A stretch of 58,026 nucleotides of DNA, taken from positions 1 to 58,026 of the forward strand of contig CAYILT010000002.1 in the NCBI GenBank assembly GCA_964364055.1, in the 5' to 3' direction. Of this stretch, positions 4,452 through 55,461 are shown piece by piece. The position numbers and the translations under genes are program-made. The notes under the pieces were generated by a model. It searched no databases, had not been told where the DNA came from, and saw only the letters and a list, made by a program, of their open reading frames with translations. Each line of letters starts with the position of its first letter. Positions within the stretch are counted from its first letter, which is position 1. This stretch comes from an uncultured Nitrospiraceae bacterium. Its GTDB lineage: Bacteria; Nitrospirota; UBA9217.

Positions 4452-5591
4452 CTACTCCTCCTTTTTCTTGTCCGCGGTATCGTCCTTCTTTCCAAGGCCT
4501 GTCAGCATTGCCGCCCCCGCGGCGCCGACCACAAGGCCCGCAACACCGGCGGCAAGCGCCTTTACGCTGGAAGATGTGCCCGGCTCGCCCGGATAGGCTT
4601 CCGTGAAGAATGTCGGAGGAGTGAGATACGCGGGATTTGACAATGTATGGAGCGGCATGCTGAAACCGACCCCTTTTTCGGTGCATCCGAAGCAGGGGTG
4701 GCCCGTGCCGACCGGCCATGCTCCCGATCCTACGTCATTGAAAAGAATGACCGGACAGTTCGCATGGGTCTCGGGACCTTTGCAGCCGAGCTTATAGAGG
4801 CAGAACCCCTTGCGGTGGCCCTCATCACCAAACCGCAGCGAGAACCTTCCCGCATCAAAATGAGGACGGCGCTCACAGTTTTCATGGATGAGTCGCTCGT
4901 AAGCGAATTTCGGCCTTCCCTTATCATCCAGCGCGGGAAGTTTCTGGAATGTGACGTAATACAGGACCGTCGAAAGAAAATTGTAGGGATTGGGCGGACA
5001 TCCCGGTATGTTCACGACCGGCGTTGCTATCCCCTTGTTCTTCATCACCTCATGCGCCGGCGTTGCACCCGTGGGATTTGGATCTGCCGAAGGTACGCCT
5101 CCCCATGAAGCACATGATCCTATTGCGATGACCGCGGCAGCCTGAGACGACATCTCCTCGAGCAGTGACAGGGCCGTCTTCCCCCCGATCTTGCAATAAA
5201 TGCCGTTGTCCTTGACCGGGATGGATCCGTCTACAACGAGAATGTACTTTCCCTTGTTCTCCTTCATTGCCTTCTCGCGCCAGGCTTCCGCCTGGTGCCC
5301 TGATCCGACAAGCAGCGTTTCATGATATTCGAGGGATATGAGCTCCAGGATCAGCCTGTCGAGGGTCGGGTGGTTCGACCGCAGCAGGGTCTCCGTGCAC
5401 CCGGTACATTCCTGCGCGGAGAGCCAAATGACCGGTGGGCGTTTTGCCGCACCGGTGACCGCCTCGGCTATCTGCTCACCGGCGCCGAGAGGCAGCCCCA
5501 TTCCTGCGGCCACGATACTGCAAAACTTAAGGAACTCCCTGCGTGACACACCAAGATGCTTGCTGACCGATTCGATATCTTTGTTCTTCAT
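4452..5591 (-). CDS. hybO: [NiFe] hydrogenase small subunit, Tat signal
   Basis: SRREFLKF twin-arginine motif, ECTGCTES, GCPPNP, and a C-terminal hydrophobic anchor. Confidence 0.92.
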   Translation of the reverse strand: MKNKDIESVSKHLGVSRREFLKFCSIVAAGMGLPLGAGEQIAEAVTGAAKRPPVIWLSAQECTGCTETLLRSNHPTLDRLILELISLEYHETLLVGSGHQAEAWREKAMKENKGKYILVVDGSIPVKDNGIYCKIGGKTALSLLEEMSSQAAAVIAIGSCASWGGVPSADPNPTGATPAHEVMKNKGIATPVVNIPGCPPNPYNFLSTVLYYVTFQKLPALDDKGRPKFAYERLIHENCERRPHFDAGRFSLRFGDEGHRKGFCLYKLGCKGPETHANCPVILFNDVGSGAWPVGTGHPCFGCTEKGVGFSMPLHTLSNPAYLTPPTFFTEAYPGEPGTSSSVKALAAGVAGLVVGAAGAAMLTGLGKKDDTADKKKEE

Positions 5592-46057: not shown

Positions 46058-47368
46058 TTATGCCTTTCCGCTCAATTGCAGGTCTTCGGAAAAAAGCTTT
46101 GCAGCTCCTTTCGCGGCGCAGAAGCTCCCGCACATGGTGCAGGAATCTTCATGCTCGGGCATGCGGCTTGCGCGGACCGCCTTCGCCTCTTCCGGATAGA
46201 GCGCGAGCTTGAACTGCTTTTCCCAATTGAGGTCCCGGCGCGCTTTGCTGATCTCCATGTCGCGCTGTCTTCCCTTCTCCGGATATTTGTTCATGTCGCC
46301 GATATAGGCGGCGATCTTGGCCGCCTGCACGCCCTGTCGCACATCGTCCTCATTCGGCAGAGCGAGATGTTCCGCAGGCGTGATATAGCATATCAGGTCA
46401 GCGCCGAAGCGGCTCGACTGCGCCGCGCCGATGGCCGCGGTGATATGGTCGAACCCCGGCGCAACGTCCGTGGTTATGGGGCCGAGCATGTAGTAGGGTG
46501 CGCCGCCACTCATCCGTTTCTGGAGCTGGATGTTTCCCTTGATCTCGTCCAGGGGCACGTGTCCCGGCCCCTCGACCAGCATCTGGCATCCCATTTCCCT
46601 GCCGATCTCGGCCAGTTCGCAATTGATTATCAGCTCCTGGATCTGCGCCCGGTCCGAGGAATCGTGGATCGCCCCTGCCCTGAGGCCGTTGCCGAGCGAC
46701 AGGACCACATCGTATTTTTTCAGGATCGAGACGACGCGGTCGAATTTCTCGTATAAAGGATTCTCCCGATTATTGGCAAGCATCCAGGCGACCATGCTCA
46801 CCCCGCCCTTGCTCACCAGGCCGCCGTAGCGGTATCCCTGCTTTCTTAAGCGTTCAATGGTATAGAGGTTGATGCCGCAGTGAATTGCCATGAAGGCGAT
46901 TCCGTCTACGCACTGCTGTTCGATCAGGTCGAAAAGCATTTCTTCATCGAGCTTGTTCGGGTCACCGTACTTCCGGCCGGCCTCACAAAAGGCCTGGTAC
47001 AGGGGGACGTTCCCGACGGGAAGTTCCACGGCCGCGATCACTTCGCGCCGCACCCGGTCCAGGTCGCCGCCCACCGAGAGTTCCATGAGTGTGTCAGCGC
47101 CCGCGGCTTCGGCAATTTTCGCTTTCCTTACCTCCGCGGCGTAGTCGACAATGTCCGACGACGTGCCGATCGAAGCATTCACCTTCGTTCGCAGCCCTTT
47201 GCCGACGCCGACCGCTTTCGGCTGCCTAATCGTGTTTCCGGGAATAACGATTTTCCCCTCTGCTACCATGGTTCGTACATACTCAGTTGATACATCCTCC
47301 GCAGCAGCGACTGTCTCCATCTGCGGTGTAACAAACCCTTTTCGGGCATGCTCTATTTGTGTTGTCAT
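46058..47368 (-). CDS. bzaF: ThiC-family radical SAM enzyme, probable 5-hydroxybenzimidazole synthase
   Basis: 436-aa ThiC homologue with a C-terminal CTMCGSFC. Preceded by cobalamin (not TPP) riboswitches and followed by cobT. Confidence 0.7.
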   Translation of the reverse strand: MTTQIEHARKGFVTPQMETVAAAEDVSTEYVRTMVAEGKIVIPGNTIRQPKAVGVGKGLRTKVNASIGTSSDIVDYAAEVRKAKIAEAAGADTLMELSVGGDLDRVRREVIAAVELPVGNVPLYQAFCEAGRKYGDPNKLDEEMLFDLIEQQCVDGIAFMAIHCGINLYTIERLRKQGYRYGGLVSKGGVSMVAWMLANNRENPLYEKFDRVVSILKKYDVVLSLGNGLRAGAIHDSSDRAQIQELIINCELAEIGREMGCQMLVEGPGHVPLDEIKGNIQLQKRMSGGAPYYMLGPITTDVAPGFDHITAAIGAAQSSRFGADLICYITPAEHLALPNEDDVRQGVQAAKIAAYIGDMNKYPEKGRQRDMEISKARRDLNWEKQFKLALYPEEAKAVRASRMPEHEDSCTMCGSFCAAKGAAKLFSEDLQLSGKA

Positions 47369-47483
47369 AGATAAGCTCCTTATGATTGTGCAATATTGTA
47401 ACCGCTACGCCTTCAAAACTGCGACCTATGACAAAACCGATATTTTTTTCTTTACCATGTTTTTTCTCCTTCCGCGTGCATAT

Positions 47484-47626
47484 GGGAATAAGACGTCTCC
47501 TGGCTTAGGACAACCTACTCGCCGGCCTTCCCACCCCGATCAGGGCAGTGGCACTCGATCAGCTTTCGTTTCCATCACAGTTGCGCGACAGCAGGGGAGT
47601 CGCACCCCTTTCCGCTTTCTTATTCC
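47484..47626 (-). promoter_or_regulatory. Cobalamin riboswitch, proximal member of a tandem pair (bzaF leader)
   Basis: GGAAUAAGAAAGCGGAAAGGGGUGCGACUCCCCUGCUGUCGCGCAACUGU, GCCACUG, GGGAAGG and the B12 box AGCCAGGAGACGUC. Confidence 0.8.
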
Positions 47627-47640
47627 ACCGTACTATAAAA

Positions 47641-47680
47641 TAAATAAATCCCCGGTCTTCTACTCAAGACCGAGGATTAA
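47641..47680 (-). terminator. Intrinsic terminator (expression platform of the distal riboswitch)
   Basis: AAUCCUCGGUCUU-GAGUAG-AAGACCGGGGAUU: a 13-bp stem followed by UAUUUAUUUUAU. Confidence 0.65.
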
Positions 47681-47691
47681 AGAAACGCCTT

Positions 47692-47893
47692 AACCCACAC
47701 ATGATCTTAACGCCGAAGAATGTGCGAAATTGTTCAAGCAGGTCTTCTGGCTCTCCCCCCCCTTTACCGGCCTTCCCAGCCAGAACACCGGCCAGTGGCG
47801 CAATTTGTAGTAAAGAGTTCGACCCCATAGTGCAGGGTCAGGATTACAGCGGCGGGTCCGCTCCCGATTTTAACGGGATTCCCTTAGCTTGAA
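47692..47893 (-). promoter_or_regulatory. Cobalamin riboswitch, distal member of the tandem pair
   Basis: AAGGGAAUCCCGUUAAAAUCGGGAGCGGACCCGCCGCUGUAA, GCCACUGG, GGGAAGG and the B12 box AGCCAGAAGACCUGC. Its 3' part is near-identical to the btuF riboswitch. Confidence 0.8.
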
Positions 47894-47980
47894 TGTGAAA
47901 CTGTTATATATGCTTTTTTTATACCACGTGCGTCATGCAAAGTCAATTCACTTTCTTTGGGGGCCTCATAGGTATAATTA

Positions 47981-52384: not shown

Positions 52385-52423
52385 CCAGCAGGGGATTCGC
52401 ACCCCTTTCCGCTTTCTTATTCC
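52385..52423 (-). repeat. Truncated 5' fragment of a cobalamin riboswitch
   Basis: CCAGCAGGGGATTCGCACCCCTTTCCGCTTTCTTATTCC matches 47589..47626 (the 5' end of the bzaF-proximal riboswitch) at 37 of 38 positions. It ends 11 nt before the bzaC start codon. Confidence 0.7.
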
Positions 52424-52476
52424 TCCAGCCTCATTTTTTTGGAAACGACATTTCCTGTTGGATTTCCGCTCCCCGT

Positions 52477-54202: not shown

Positions 54203-55023
54203 GCTGCCAGCTCCTCTATTCCTTGAATGATGCGCGGCGCCAGGCGGTACAAGTTGTCGCTCACATAACAGACCTTTCCGTTCTTTACCGCCGGAACGGT
54301 CGCGAGCTTCTTGAGTATGCCCTGCGAGACGGTCCGGATGTCCATCCCCGCGCCCTTGCCTATGATCAGCGCGTCAGGCGACGCGCGGATGAGTTCTTCG
54401 ATGGAATAGCGGGGATAGGATGACGGTGCATGGCCAGCGACATTCACCAGGCCCAGCAGCGTAATGGCGTCGTGGATCGCCGTGCCCGGCCCCGCAACGA
54501 GCAGCGGCTCCGGCCAGACGATGTACACAACCTTTTTCTGGCTTCTGTCTTCTGACTTCTGGCTTCTGTATTTATTAATTCCCTCTTCCATCTCTCTCGC
54601 CAGCTTCTCGCCGCTTTCCTTTACTCCCATCGCAACAGCCAGTTCGCGGATCGCCGCGGGCAGTTCAGCAAGCGTCCGTGCGGTCCAGACATAGGTCTTG
54701 AGCGACATGCCCCGGAGCCGGTCATCGACCTCCCGGGGGTTCCCGTCGGTCGTCATGACGACGATGTCGGGCTTGAGCCCGACGATCGCCTCGAGCGATG
54801 GGTTCGACATCCCGCCGATCTTCGCCTTTTTCTTCGCTTCAGGAGGATGGTCGCAGAAGCTCGTCACCCCGGCGATCCGGTCGCCGAGCCCGAGCGCGAA
54901 CAGGATCTCCGTCGTTGCCGGGGAAAGAGAGATGATCCGCGTCGGAACGGGGACCGGTTCAGCGGCAAATGCACGTAGAGAAAACGCTATGAGGAAAAAA
55001 AGAATAATGAATGTTCTTTGCAT
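54190..55023 (-). CDS. btuF: Periplasmic corrinoid-binding protein
   Basis: Start moved to MQRTFIILFFLIAFSLRAFA. RIISLSPATTEILFALGLGDRIAGVT. Preceded by a riboswitch. Confidence 0.82.
   Translation of the reverse strand: MQRTFIILFFLIAFSLRAFAAEPVPVPTRIISLSPATTEILFALGLGDRIAGVTSFCDHPPEAKKKAKIGGMSNPSLEAIVGLKPDIVVMTTDGNPREVDDRLRGMSLKTYVWTARTLAELPAAIRELAVAMGVKESGEKLAREMEEGINKYRSQKSEDRSQKKVVYIVWPEPLLVAGPGTAIHDAITLLGLVNVAGHAPSSYPRYSIEELIRASPDALIIGKGAGMDIRTVSQGILKKLATVPAVKNGKVCYVSDNLYRLAPRIIQGIEELAACVR
54536..54568. repeat. Heptanucleotide tract (CTTCTG[R]) inside btuF
   Basis: Encodes RSQKSEDRSQKK. Confidence 0.8.
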
Positions 55024-55093: not shown

Positions 55094-55134
55094 ATAAAAA
55101 ATCCCCAGCCTTCACGGGAAGACTGGGGATTAAG
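55094..55134 (-). terminator. Intrinsic terminator (expression platform of the btuF riboswitch)
   Basis: AAUCCCCAGUC...GGCUGGGGAUU followed by UUUUUAUU. Confidence 0.6.
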
Positions 55135-55142
55135 GGACACAT

Positions 55143-55350
55143 TAACCCACACATGATCTTAACGCCGAAGACTGTGCGAGAAACATCCGGGTAGGTTTTC
55201 TGGCTCTCCCTCATCTGCCGTCCTTCCCATCCCGATGGTTCGGGACAGTGGATACTGGCTGGCAGATGCGTTGACCCTGCTTCCTGCAGGGCCGGGATCA
55301 CAGCGGCGGGTCCGCTCCCGATTTACACGGGATTCCCTTCGCCTGGATGT
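55143..55350 (-). promoter_or_regulatory. Cobalamin riboswitch (btuFCD leader)
   Basis: AAGGGAAUCCCGUGUAAAUCGGGAGCGGACCCGCCGCUGUGA, CCACUGU, GGGAAGG and the B12 box AGCCAGAAAACCUAC. Confidence 0.85.
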
Positions 55351-55461
55351 GTTCGGTATGTAGTTGTGCCTGCTTTATACCACGCCGCGTAGATAAAGTC
55401 AAAAACTATCCGCACGGGATACTGTCGCCTCAATGGATTCGCCTGTCCCCTTGTCAGCAGT

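Follow-up and report, generated by a model that had tools for sequence, protein, structure and literature searches.

Tandem adenosylcobalamin (AdoCbl) riboswitches were reported in 2006 (Sudarsan et al.), and a later survey, which places them among pseudo-cooperative arrangements, counted 26 such doublets (Sherlock et al. 2022, PMC9481103). For SAM-II/SAM-V pairs (SAM, S-adenosylmethionine) and for some SAM-II doublets, bi-mechanism tandems have been defined, in which a terminator is followed by translational control, and a steeper dose response is predicted for same-ligand tandems of this kind (PMC9481103). In ppe2 of Mycobacterium tuberculosis, a B12 riboswitch controls a short upstream open reading frame (uORF) that is needed for downstream expression, mainly through termination-reinitiation (Kipkorir et al. 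2024, PMC11260477). Here we describe a pair of cobalamin riboswitches in the leader of bzaF, on the (-) strand of a 58,026-nt stretch of DNA (the window) from an uncultured Nitrospiraceae bacterium (Nitrospirota). This leader is probably a bi-mechanism tandem on one transcript, combining transcription attenuation of the operon with uORF-relayed translational control of bzaF; its aptamers, promoter, terminator, uORF and a stem at the bzaF start are evident from sequence and comparison.

Like the described AdoCbl doublets (PMC9481103), the locus has two complete riboswitches of the same class in one leader, with no gene between them, a terminator in the first and a steeper response to be expected. 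Unlike in those doublets, the second unit lacks a terminator and is apparently translational, and the two units belong to two subtypes with separate paralogues in the same cluster. With the SAM-II/SAM-V and mixed SAM-II bi-mechanism tandems it would share the order of terminator first and ribosome access second, for the same ligand, an arrangement whose rationale is to control both mRNA synthesis and the use of mRNA already made. It differs from them in that the ligand would be AdoCbl, whose tandems are listed in PMC9481103 only as pseudo-cooperative, and in that the translational step acts on a uORF and not on the gene directly. As in M. tuberculosis ppe2, a cobalamin riboswitch is predicted here to act as a translational switch on a short uORF; in contrast to ppe2, the uORF stop lies 57-125 nt upstream, bzaF has its own Shine-Dalgarno sequence, and the predicted link is the melting of a stem that masks the start. 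M. tuberculosis, moreover, has no tandem partner. The bza or cobT-bzaF operons of Desulfuromonadales/Geobacteraceae share the gene family and the riboswitch class, but at the 26 loci scanned they have a single riboswitch or none within 3 kb, and no tandem. A tandem ahead of bzaF in uncultured Nitrospirota was not found in the literature searched. Each element thus has a precedent, but their combination (a probable cobalamin bi-mechanism tandem of two subtypes, with a predicted uORF relay via a masking stem, before bzaF) was not met in that literature; the tandem is real, conserved and mechanistically interpretable, and is a modest variant within a known category.

Two complete cobalamin riboswitches in tandem had been proposed for this leader from the sequence alone (hereafter the original prediction), and a covariance-model scan bears this out. 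Both units match the Rfam Cobalamin model RF00174 over its full length (model positions 1-189), the proximal unit at 47660-47477 (-) with 79.4 bits (E 6e-18) and the distal unit at 47907-47720 (-) with 70.9 bits (E 1.6e-15). Neither is under the gathering score of 31.5 bits, and both exceed it more than twofold. Four further matches lie on the same strand of the window (55361-55173, 36502-36301, 35430-35238 and 14749-14594), and an alignment of the six riboswitches separates two types, A and B. The unit coordinates given in the original prediction correspond to the closing helices, P1, which begin at 47893 in the distal and at 47626 in the proximal unit:

47733..47893, (-) strand: distal aptamer, type A, bounded by the two P1 strands, without P2 hairpin, B12 box GCCACUG (RF00174, RNAalifold)
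47485..47626, (-) strand: proximal aptamer, type B, with a 9-bp P1 GGAAUAAGA / UCUUAUUCC (RF00174, 79.4 bits)

The distal P1 is formed by UUCAAGC (47893-47887) and GCUUGAA (47739-47733). RNAalifold on 10 homologues gives 43 pairs for the distal aptamer, 15 of them with compensatory double changes, P1 among them. The proximal aptamer is almost invariant across 14 relatives; in its P1 (GGAAUAAGA, 47626-47618, with UCUUAUUCC, 47493-47485) one A-U pair is exchanged for G-C in two of the bzaF loci compared here (L007 and L009 of L001-L040) and for G-U in another (L006). Rfam's own alignment of the proximal unit builds P1 from the 3' arm of the terminator and assigns the true P1 strand to P2; it carries flagged mismatches and was set aside in favour of this perfect, covarying 9-bp P1. 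The B12 box GCCACUG is invariant in both units, and both align through RF00174 positions ~83-150, which we take to be the P6 extension, carrying the B12 box. The P6 extension marks AdoCbl-type (class I) aptamers, and we take both units to carry that of class I cobalamin riboswitches. Between the distal P1 3' strand (47733) and the proximal P1 5' strand (47626) lie 106 nt and no gene; the stretch contains only a P13 hairpin, a terminator and a 10-nt spacer. The type-B aptamer is otherwise near-invariant, yet has insertions of 30-60 nt at two peripheral hairpins (L003, ~2730-2790; L004, L012 and L013 in the apical P6-extension region), and the riboswitch at 14.6 kb of the window has a 37-nt inserted hairpin.

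The expression platform of the distal unit consists of the following elements:

47694..47728, (-) strand: P13-like hairpin, UUCGCACAUUCUU / loop CGGCGUU / AAGAUCAUGUGUGGG (minimum free energy (MFE) fold, alifold consensus)
47637..47678, (-) strand: intrinsic terminator, 13-bp stem 47678-47647 and tail UAUUUAUUUU 47646-47637 (terminator scan)
47666..47708, (-) strand: predicted antiterminator, P13 3' strand and GGGUUAA (47708-47691) with UUAAUCCUCGGUCUU (47679-47666) of the terminator 5' arm (alifold of the cut sequence; inferred)

A 13-bp-stem terminator with a U-rich tail had been assigned to the distal unit before, and the stem at 47678-47647, followed by UAUUUAUUUU, is indeed kept paired in homologues: 95.4% of cells pair across 10 homologues, with one A-U to G-C exchange and a fold z-score of -3.4. 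For P13, 94.6% of cells pair across 10 sequences and two pairs show double changes. Taken jointly over the 10 sequences, P13 and terminator are 95% paired, compared with 35-49% in slid registers; double changes occur at three pairs, and the covariation exceeds that of all 500 shuffles. Long-stem terminators are rare on this strand: between 36.2 and 56 kb, a stretch of 20 kb, there are only two, this one and its homologue after the 55-kb riboswitch.

If the aligned sequences end before the terminator 3' arm, the alifold consensus switches to a fold with a helix between AAGAY…GGGUUAA and UUAAUCC…GUCUU, the latter in the terminator 5' arm. A companion helix, between GAAGA of the aptamer (47747-47743) and UCUUC of P13 (47719-47715), would free the P13 3' strand in the unfolded aptamer. 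The antiterminator pairing is possible in all 10 homologues (95.8% of cells, compared with 34-60% in slid registers). P13, antiterminator and terminator together would form a classical strand-exchange attenuator. A simpler antiterminator, with AAGACC of the aptamer directly on GGUCUU of the terminator arm, was rejected in favour of the relay through P13, its complementarity being lost in L003 and L005 (by eye).

The distal unit appears to be part of the bzaF leader and is preceded by a promoter:

47918..47946, (-) strand: leader promoter, -35 TTGACT at 47946-47941, 17-nt spacer, extended -10 TGgTATAAA at 47926-47918 (alignment, pattern search)

A simple sigma-70 scan missed this promoter because it demands T at the last -10 position; a direct pattern search found it. 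The pattern TTGACT-N16-18-TATAA occurs twice in the 58 kb, with 0.03 occurrences expected, and the second copy stands directly before the paralogous riboswitch of the btuF leader. When the window is aligned with six relatives that share the riboswitch pair, TTGAC and TG.TATAA do not vary, and sequence further upstream cannot be aligned. The transcript is expected to start near 47911. By Rfam, the same riboswitch pair is found in eight relatives (L002, L003, L005, L006, L007, L009, L010 and L011), five of which have no bzaE upstream. Between the units, neither a -35 element nor a conserved promoter motif was found in the alignment, and the promoter scan gave nothing; the spacer from the U tail to the proximal P1 is unconserved and varies from ~4 nt (L009) to ~70 nt (L007). 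Since a conserved promoter lies just upstream, none is conserved between the units, and the pair occurs without bzaE in five relatives, the distal unit most plausibly belongs to the bzaF leader and is not a 3' element of bzaE; a transcript start between the units is unlikely. The same evidence makes a scheme of two transcripts highly improbable, in which the distal unit would be a conditional 3' terminator of btuFCD-bzaCDE and a promoter in the spacer would drive the proximal unit and bzaF. Such a scheme could point to the lack of a terminator after bzaE, so that upstream transcripts enter the distal unit, and to a -10-like TATAGT in the A/T-rich tail (47637-47632). It would leave the strong promoter upstream of the distal unit, and its conservation together with that unit, unaccounted for, as well as the cassette without bzaE in five relatives; and the spacer it relies on is unconserved, has no -35 element, shrinks to ~4 nt in L009 and gives nothing in the promoter scan. 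On the one-transcript reading, any read-through from upstream would meet the distal switch, bzaE having no terminator of its own.

The two units differ in subtype. Type A, to which the distal unit and the btuF leader belong, lacks the P2 hairpin and has a common 3' tail made of the P13-like hairpin, a GGRUUAA…UUAAUCC element and the terminator, found in both window copies and in eight relatives. That the distal unit is a close paralogue of the btuF leader, as originally predicted, is seen from the common segment UCGCACA.UCUUCGGCGUUAAGAUCAUGUGUGGGUUAA, with one mismatch, and from two longer blocks that are 88-90% identical. The members of type B are the proximal unit and the leaders at 14.6 kb (TonB-dependent receptor, btuB-like), 35.2 kb (CbiM) and 36.3 kb (outer-membrane beta-barrel protein), so that the alignment also agrees with the earlier grouping of the proximal unit with the btuB, cbiM and porin leaders. 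Type B ends in a strong P1, followed ~11 nt on by GAAGGAG; in the other three leaders of this type, what comes after P1 is the regulated gene's own Shine-Dalgarno sequence and ATG. None of the type-B leaders in the window has a terminator. Because of this, and of the Shine-Dalgarno sequence next to P1, type B looks translational. The subtypes appear to track the expression platform (a terminator in A, a Shine-Dalgarno sequence after P1 in B) and not gene function.

Since subtype follows the kind of platform, a tandem of transcriptional and translational control is the simplest reading, and a sensor of two inputs is unlikely. In the latter, types A and B would differ in corrinoid selectivity, for instance with one confined to complete base-on cobamides and the other accepting cobinamide or base-off forms as well. 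Cobalamin riboswitches do vary in corrinoid selectivity, and differing selectivity is possible in principle (PMC9600662); the two aptamers of this leader also differ over much of their core sequence. However, the A/B split follows the platform, with A before btuFCD-bzaCDE and the bzaF operon and B before btuB, cbiM, the porin gene and bzaF. Both units, in addition, fit the same Rfam model at full length, including the presumed class I P6 extension. There is also no sequence rule for lower-ligand selectivity to appeal to, Kennedy et al. having found no single determinant of selectivity and 'no single conserved substructure'. A more specific version, in which type A reads any corrinoid and type B with its uORF only a complete benzimidazolyl cobamide, or the reverse, is unlikely too. 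If true, it would mean that nucleotide-loop enzymes and the lower-ligand synthase are made under different conditions, and that a single riboswitch class has yielded, at the lower-ligand step, a natural logic gate with two corrinoid inputs.

Beyond the proximal aptamer, the reading of a transcriptional switch followed by a translational one leads to a uORF and a long-range stem at the start of bzaF:

47466..47473, (-) strand: Shine-Dalgarno sequence GGAAGGAG, 11 nt past the proximal P1, serving the uORF (AAGGAG invariant in the leader alignment)
47426..47458, (-) strand: uORF of 10 codons and a stop, MVKKKISVLS (open reading frame (ORF) conservation)
47424..47434, (-) strand: 5' arm of the long-range stem, uORF tail UUGUCAUAGGU including the stop codon (MFE and centroid folds)
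47362..47372, (-) strand: 3' arm of the long-range stem, AUCUAUGACAA with the bzaF AUG at 47368-47366 (MFE and centroid folds)
46058..47368, (-) strand: bzaF, ThiC-fold radical SAM enzyme, probable 5-hydroxybenzimidazole synthase, first gene of the operon (NCBIfam, homologues, synteny)

bzaF was correctly placed downstream of the proximal aptamer in the original prediction, but it does not follow directly, the conserved 10-codon uORF and the long-range stem standing between them. The uORF Shine-Dalgarno sequence takes the position that the btuB, cbiM and porin Shine-Dalgarno sequences have in the other three type-B leaders. Shine-Dalgarno sequence, ATG, 8-10 codons and stop are kept in 14 type-B leaders (the window and L001-L013); L015, outside this scripted count, also has a short ORF, read by eye. 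The uORF peptide is unconserved save for its last residues, and the final ~10 nt, GUUGUCAUAG, are conserved and are the reverse complement of the bzaF start region CUAUGACAAC. The resulting 11-bp stem (47434-47424 / 47372-47362) appears in both the MFE and the centroid fold (z = -3.2). In 11 sequences 79.7% of its cells pair, compared with 25-51% in slid registers, and the covariation exceeds that of all 500 shuffles; one pair swaps U-A for C-G at a synonymous site in bzaF codon 3. The bzaF AUG is predicted to be paired with the uORF tail in 9 of 11 relatives (p = 0.66-1.0), despite non-homologous spacers of 57-125 nt. The distance from uORF stop to bzaF AUG is 57 nt in the window and 57-125 nt in relatives; stop and start neither overlap nor abut, and bzaF has its own Shine-Dalgarno sequence, AAGGAG, at 47381-47376.

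These elements suggest the following course of events. The sigma-70-type promoter at 47946-47918 would start the RNA a few bases ahead of the distal aptamer. With a corrinoid bound, the core of the distal aptamer would retain its own 3' segment (…CCAGAAGACC…); P13 would then form, and the terminator 5' arm would be free for the 3' arm. Transcription would end at 47646-47637 and the whole bzaF-cobT-cobQ-cbiB-cobD-cbiA… operon would be off; the same stop would block read-through from btuFCD-bzaCDE, genes that lack a terminator after them. In the ligand-free state, GAAGA of the aptamer would pair with UCUUC of P13, and the released P13 3' strand, together with GGGUUAA, would take the terminator 5' arm, so that transcription reads on. 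Transcripts that pass the terminator would carry the proximal aptamer, which would control the Shine-Dalgarno sequence 11 nt after P1, as its three paralogues in the window probably do. The last 11 nt of the uORF would be base-paired to the start-codon region of bzaF, and ribosomes ending the uORF would melt this stem and expose the initiation site; in the presence of ligand the uORF would stay untranslated and the bzaF start masked. From this layout we infer that the units respond to ligand, that the proximal one is an OFF switch, that uORF and bzaF are coupled, and that the dose response would be steeper or two-tiered. In the original prediction benzimidazole lower-ligand synthesis might be shut off more steeply than the rest of the pathway; in the present scheme the distal unit would gate not this synthesis alone but an operon of ~10 genes, and only the proximal layer would be specific to bzaF.

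Several observations weigh against this scheme. The antiterminator shows no significant covariation among the 10 homologues. L004 and L008 lack the stem between uORF tail and start codon, and three loci in which cobT comes first (L001, L010 and L011) keep the uORF with no complementarity of its tail to the cobT start (by eye). No secondary structure was found that would hide the uORF Shine-Dalgarno sequence in the ligand-bound state, and in partition-function runs on 11 homologues Shine-Dalgarno accessibility did not shift in a consistent way when P1 was forced or blocked. Moreover, the P1 3' strand of the window is complementary to the Shine-Dalgarno sequence, which alone would predict an ON switch. 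The tandem also appears not to be essential, as the close relatives L004 and L012 manage with the proximal unit alone, and transcript start, termination and co-transcription are deduced from sequence features.

The direction of the proximal unit deserves particular attention, folding being uninformative here because the runs with P1 forced or blocked are inconsistent. It would be an OFF switch by analogy, since the same platform precedes btuB and cbiM and the targets also include biosynthesis genes; B12 repression of transport genes such as btuB and cbiM is the norm. The opposite arrangement, in which the ligand switches the uORF ON by removing the P1 3' strand as an anti-Shine-Dalgarno sequence, or in which uORF translation represses bzaF, would give no simple steeper OFF response and seems quite unlikely. 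In its favour, UCUUAUUCC is paired to GGAAGGAGA when the 3' part is folded in isolation, and forcing P1 raises the predicted unpaired Shine-Dalgarno fraction in the window from 0.37 to 0.96; this P1 effect is, however, not reproduced in the 10 other scored homologues, and P1 could not be placed in three more. An ON switch would also sit oddly with the same platform before btuB and cbiM, transport genes that are normally repressed by B12. As to repression of bzaF by the uORF, translation of the M. tuberculosis metE uORF does suppress its downstream gene, but the stem geometry of the present leader predicts that uORF translation exposes, and does not hide, the bzaF start.

A kissing loop between L5 and L13 was sought by eye, and L5 showed no consistent covariation, whether with the P13 loop (type A) or with the post-P1 region (type B). 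GUCGCA just past the uORF stop (47424-47419) is complementary to UGCGAC of the proximal L5; this match is not seen in relatives and could be due to chance. UUGCA, ~20-30 nt into the btuB-like and porin ORFs behind the 14-kb and 36-kb riboswitches, is likewise complementary to L5 (UGCAA) and is not conserved in relatives. Such L5-complementary motifs may be distant kissing-loop partners.

The distribution of the leader points to its probable origin. Among the 40 bzaF loci scanned (L001-L040), the tandem is found only in the Nitrospirota clade; the 26 loci of Geobacter/Desulfuromonadales type (L014 and L016-L040) have no tandem, with one riboswitch or none within 3 kb. L004 and L012, which have the same bzaD-bzaE-bzaF synteny as the window, have only the type-B/uORF leader. 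In the window, a cassette of promoter, type-A aptamer, P13 and terminator is duplicated (55100-55402 (-) and 47637-47946 (-), blocks 88-90% identical). Just upstream of the bzaC ATG (52373), moreover, lies a 41-nt orphan fragment of a type-B aptamer (52386-52426 (-)), which consists of the P1 5' strand and the GGGGUGCGAAUCCCC hairpin, is 95% identical to the proximal 5' end (47589-47629) and is followed by a U-run. The fragment was considered as a seventh riboswitch and discarded, as it has only these 41 nt and no Rfam score even at E <= 1. Duplicated cassette, type-B-only relatives and orphan fragment indicate that the region has been rearranged. The tandem most likely stems from the insertion of a type-A cassette with its promoter, which was copied from the btuF leader or is shared with it, ahead of an older type-B/uORF leader. 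The orphan fragment and its counterpart in the proximal unit are direct repeats on either side of a 4.8-kb block with bzaC, bzaD, bzaE, the promoter and the type-A unit, an arrangement that resembles a rearrangement scar. The listed GTG start of the btuF-like ORF (55152) falls inside the leader, and since it precedes the terminator of that leader, the real btuF start must lie further downstream, near 55008 (MQRTFIILFF…).

With such a history, one of the units could be an evolutionary leftover that does not regulate, the tandem being a by-product of cassette insertion without effect on the dose response. The signs of rearrangement (the duplicated promoter and type-A cassette, and the 41-nt orphan type-B fragment before bzaC) and the relatives with the proximal unit alone would suit this explanation, which is nonetheless very unlikely. 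Both units are full-length and high-scoring, and their platforms are kept in eight genomes whose BzaF is only 89-93% identical to that of the window; compensatory changes are present and the proximal unit is nearly invariant. What a true relic looks like is seen before bzaC, where the fragment is truncated and scores nothing.

The usual view of same-ligand tandems is that they make the dose response steeper, or else keep control of mRNA synthesis apart from control of mRNA use; few cobalamin cases have been dissected. The leader offers a compact, conserved natural case with three separable predicted layers, namely a terminator unit in charge of an 11-kb cobamide operon, a translational unit, and a uORF relay whose only target would be bzaF, at the first step of anaerobic benzimidazole synthesis; the relatives that lack the distal unit are natural controls. 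As a pair of aptamers in one organism and one leader, it also suits the question of complete versus incomplete corrinoid discrimination by riboswitches at the lower-ligand step, raised by work on the cobT riboswitch of Sporomusa ovata.

In the 5'-3' direction of the (-) strand, the gene order is 55.3-kb riboswitch, btuF, btuC, btuD, bzaC, BzaD, probable BzaE, tandem leader and bzaF operon. After bzaF follow cobT, cobQ, cbiB, cobD, cbiA, DedA, UppP and cbiX/C, reaching ~36.5 kb and making an operon of ~10 genes, within which a terminator scan found no strong terminator. The bzaC product combines an O-methyltransferase with DUF2284, and BzaD is matched at 696 bits (NCBIfam). The gene immediately upstream of the leader, next after BzaC and BzaD, encodes a 509-aa radical SAM protein (Pfam Radical_SAM) whose NCBIfam matches are B12-binding radical SAM families, every one under its cut-off. 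It is the probable BzaE, a label kept at that strength because no specific model exists.

For bzaF itself, the model evidence would suggest another name. Its product scores 597 bits against the ThiC model PRK13352 (cut-off 410), is matched by ThiC chains in the PDB (E = 5e-96) and reaches 542 bits with the BzaB model, under the cut-off of 700; the libraries contain no BzaF model. The NCBIfam ThiC equivalog passes on the protein encoded at 46058-47368, and its automatic name would be phosphomethylpyrimidine synthase. The product is 89-95% identical to proteins of uncultured Nitrospirota and 84-87% identical to Geobacteraceae/Desulfuromonadales proteins whose genes lie between cobT and bzaC (cobT-X-bzaC synteny). 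In the window, Rfam finds riboswitches of the cobalamin type and no thiamin pyrophosphate (TPP) riboswitch, and the surroundings of bzaF are all cobamide-related, with cobalamin riboswitches, cobT downstream, and bzaC, bzaD and the bzaE-like gene upstream. Because of the 84-87% identity to Geobacteraceae proteins in cobT-X-bzaC synteny, and of cobalamin riboswitches with no TPP riboswitch in the window, bzaF appears the more sensible name for this ThiC-fold gene. The gene labels of the original prediction can accordingly be retained, with the caveats that NCBIfam names bzaF as ThiC and that BzaE is only probable. For annotation this means that a gene named ThiC is here apparently regulated as a B12 gene and not as a thiamin gene.

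The six cobalamin riboswitches share one strand and organise a ~43-kb B12 supercluster (12.7-55.4 kb of the window, (-)), whose members are the btuB-like receptor, cbiM, the outer-membrane barrel protein, btuFCD-bzaCDE and the bzaF-cobT-cobQ-cbiB-cobD-cbiA operon. The DNA runs that contain the leader sequence are groundwater and sediment metagenomes; none of the RNA sequencing runs searched for it contains it. At the loci in which cobT is first and bzaF second (L010, 1104-3001; L011, 995-3001; L001, 96-1688), the uORF reads MAEKIPVLP or MAGKIPALP, each followed by the stop; the tandem of types A and B stands before cobT in L010 and L011, and in L010 a local hairpin spans the uORF stop. In L006, group II intron domains (RF02001, 142.7 bits; RF01998, 67.3 bits) lie at 4489-4778, immediately 3' of bzaF.

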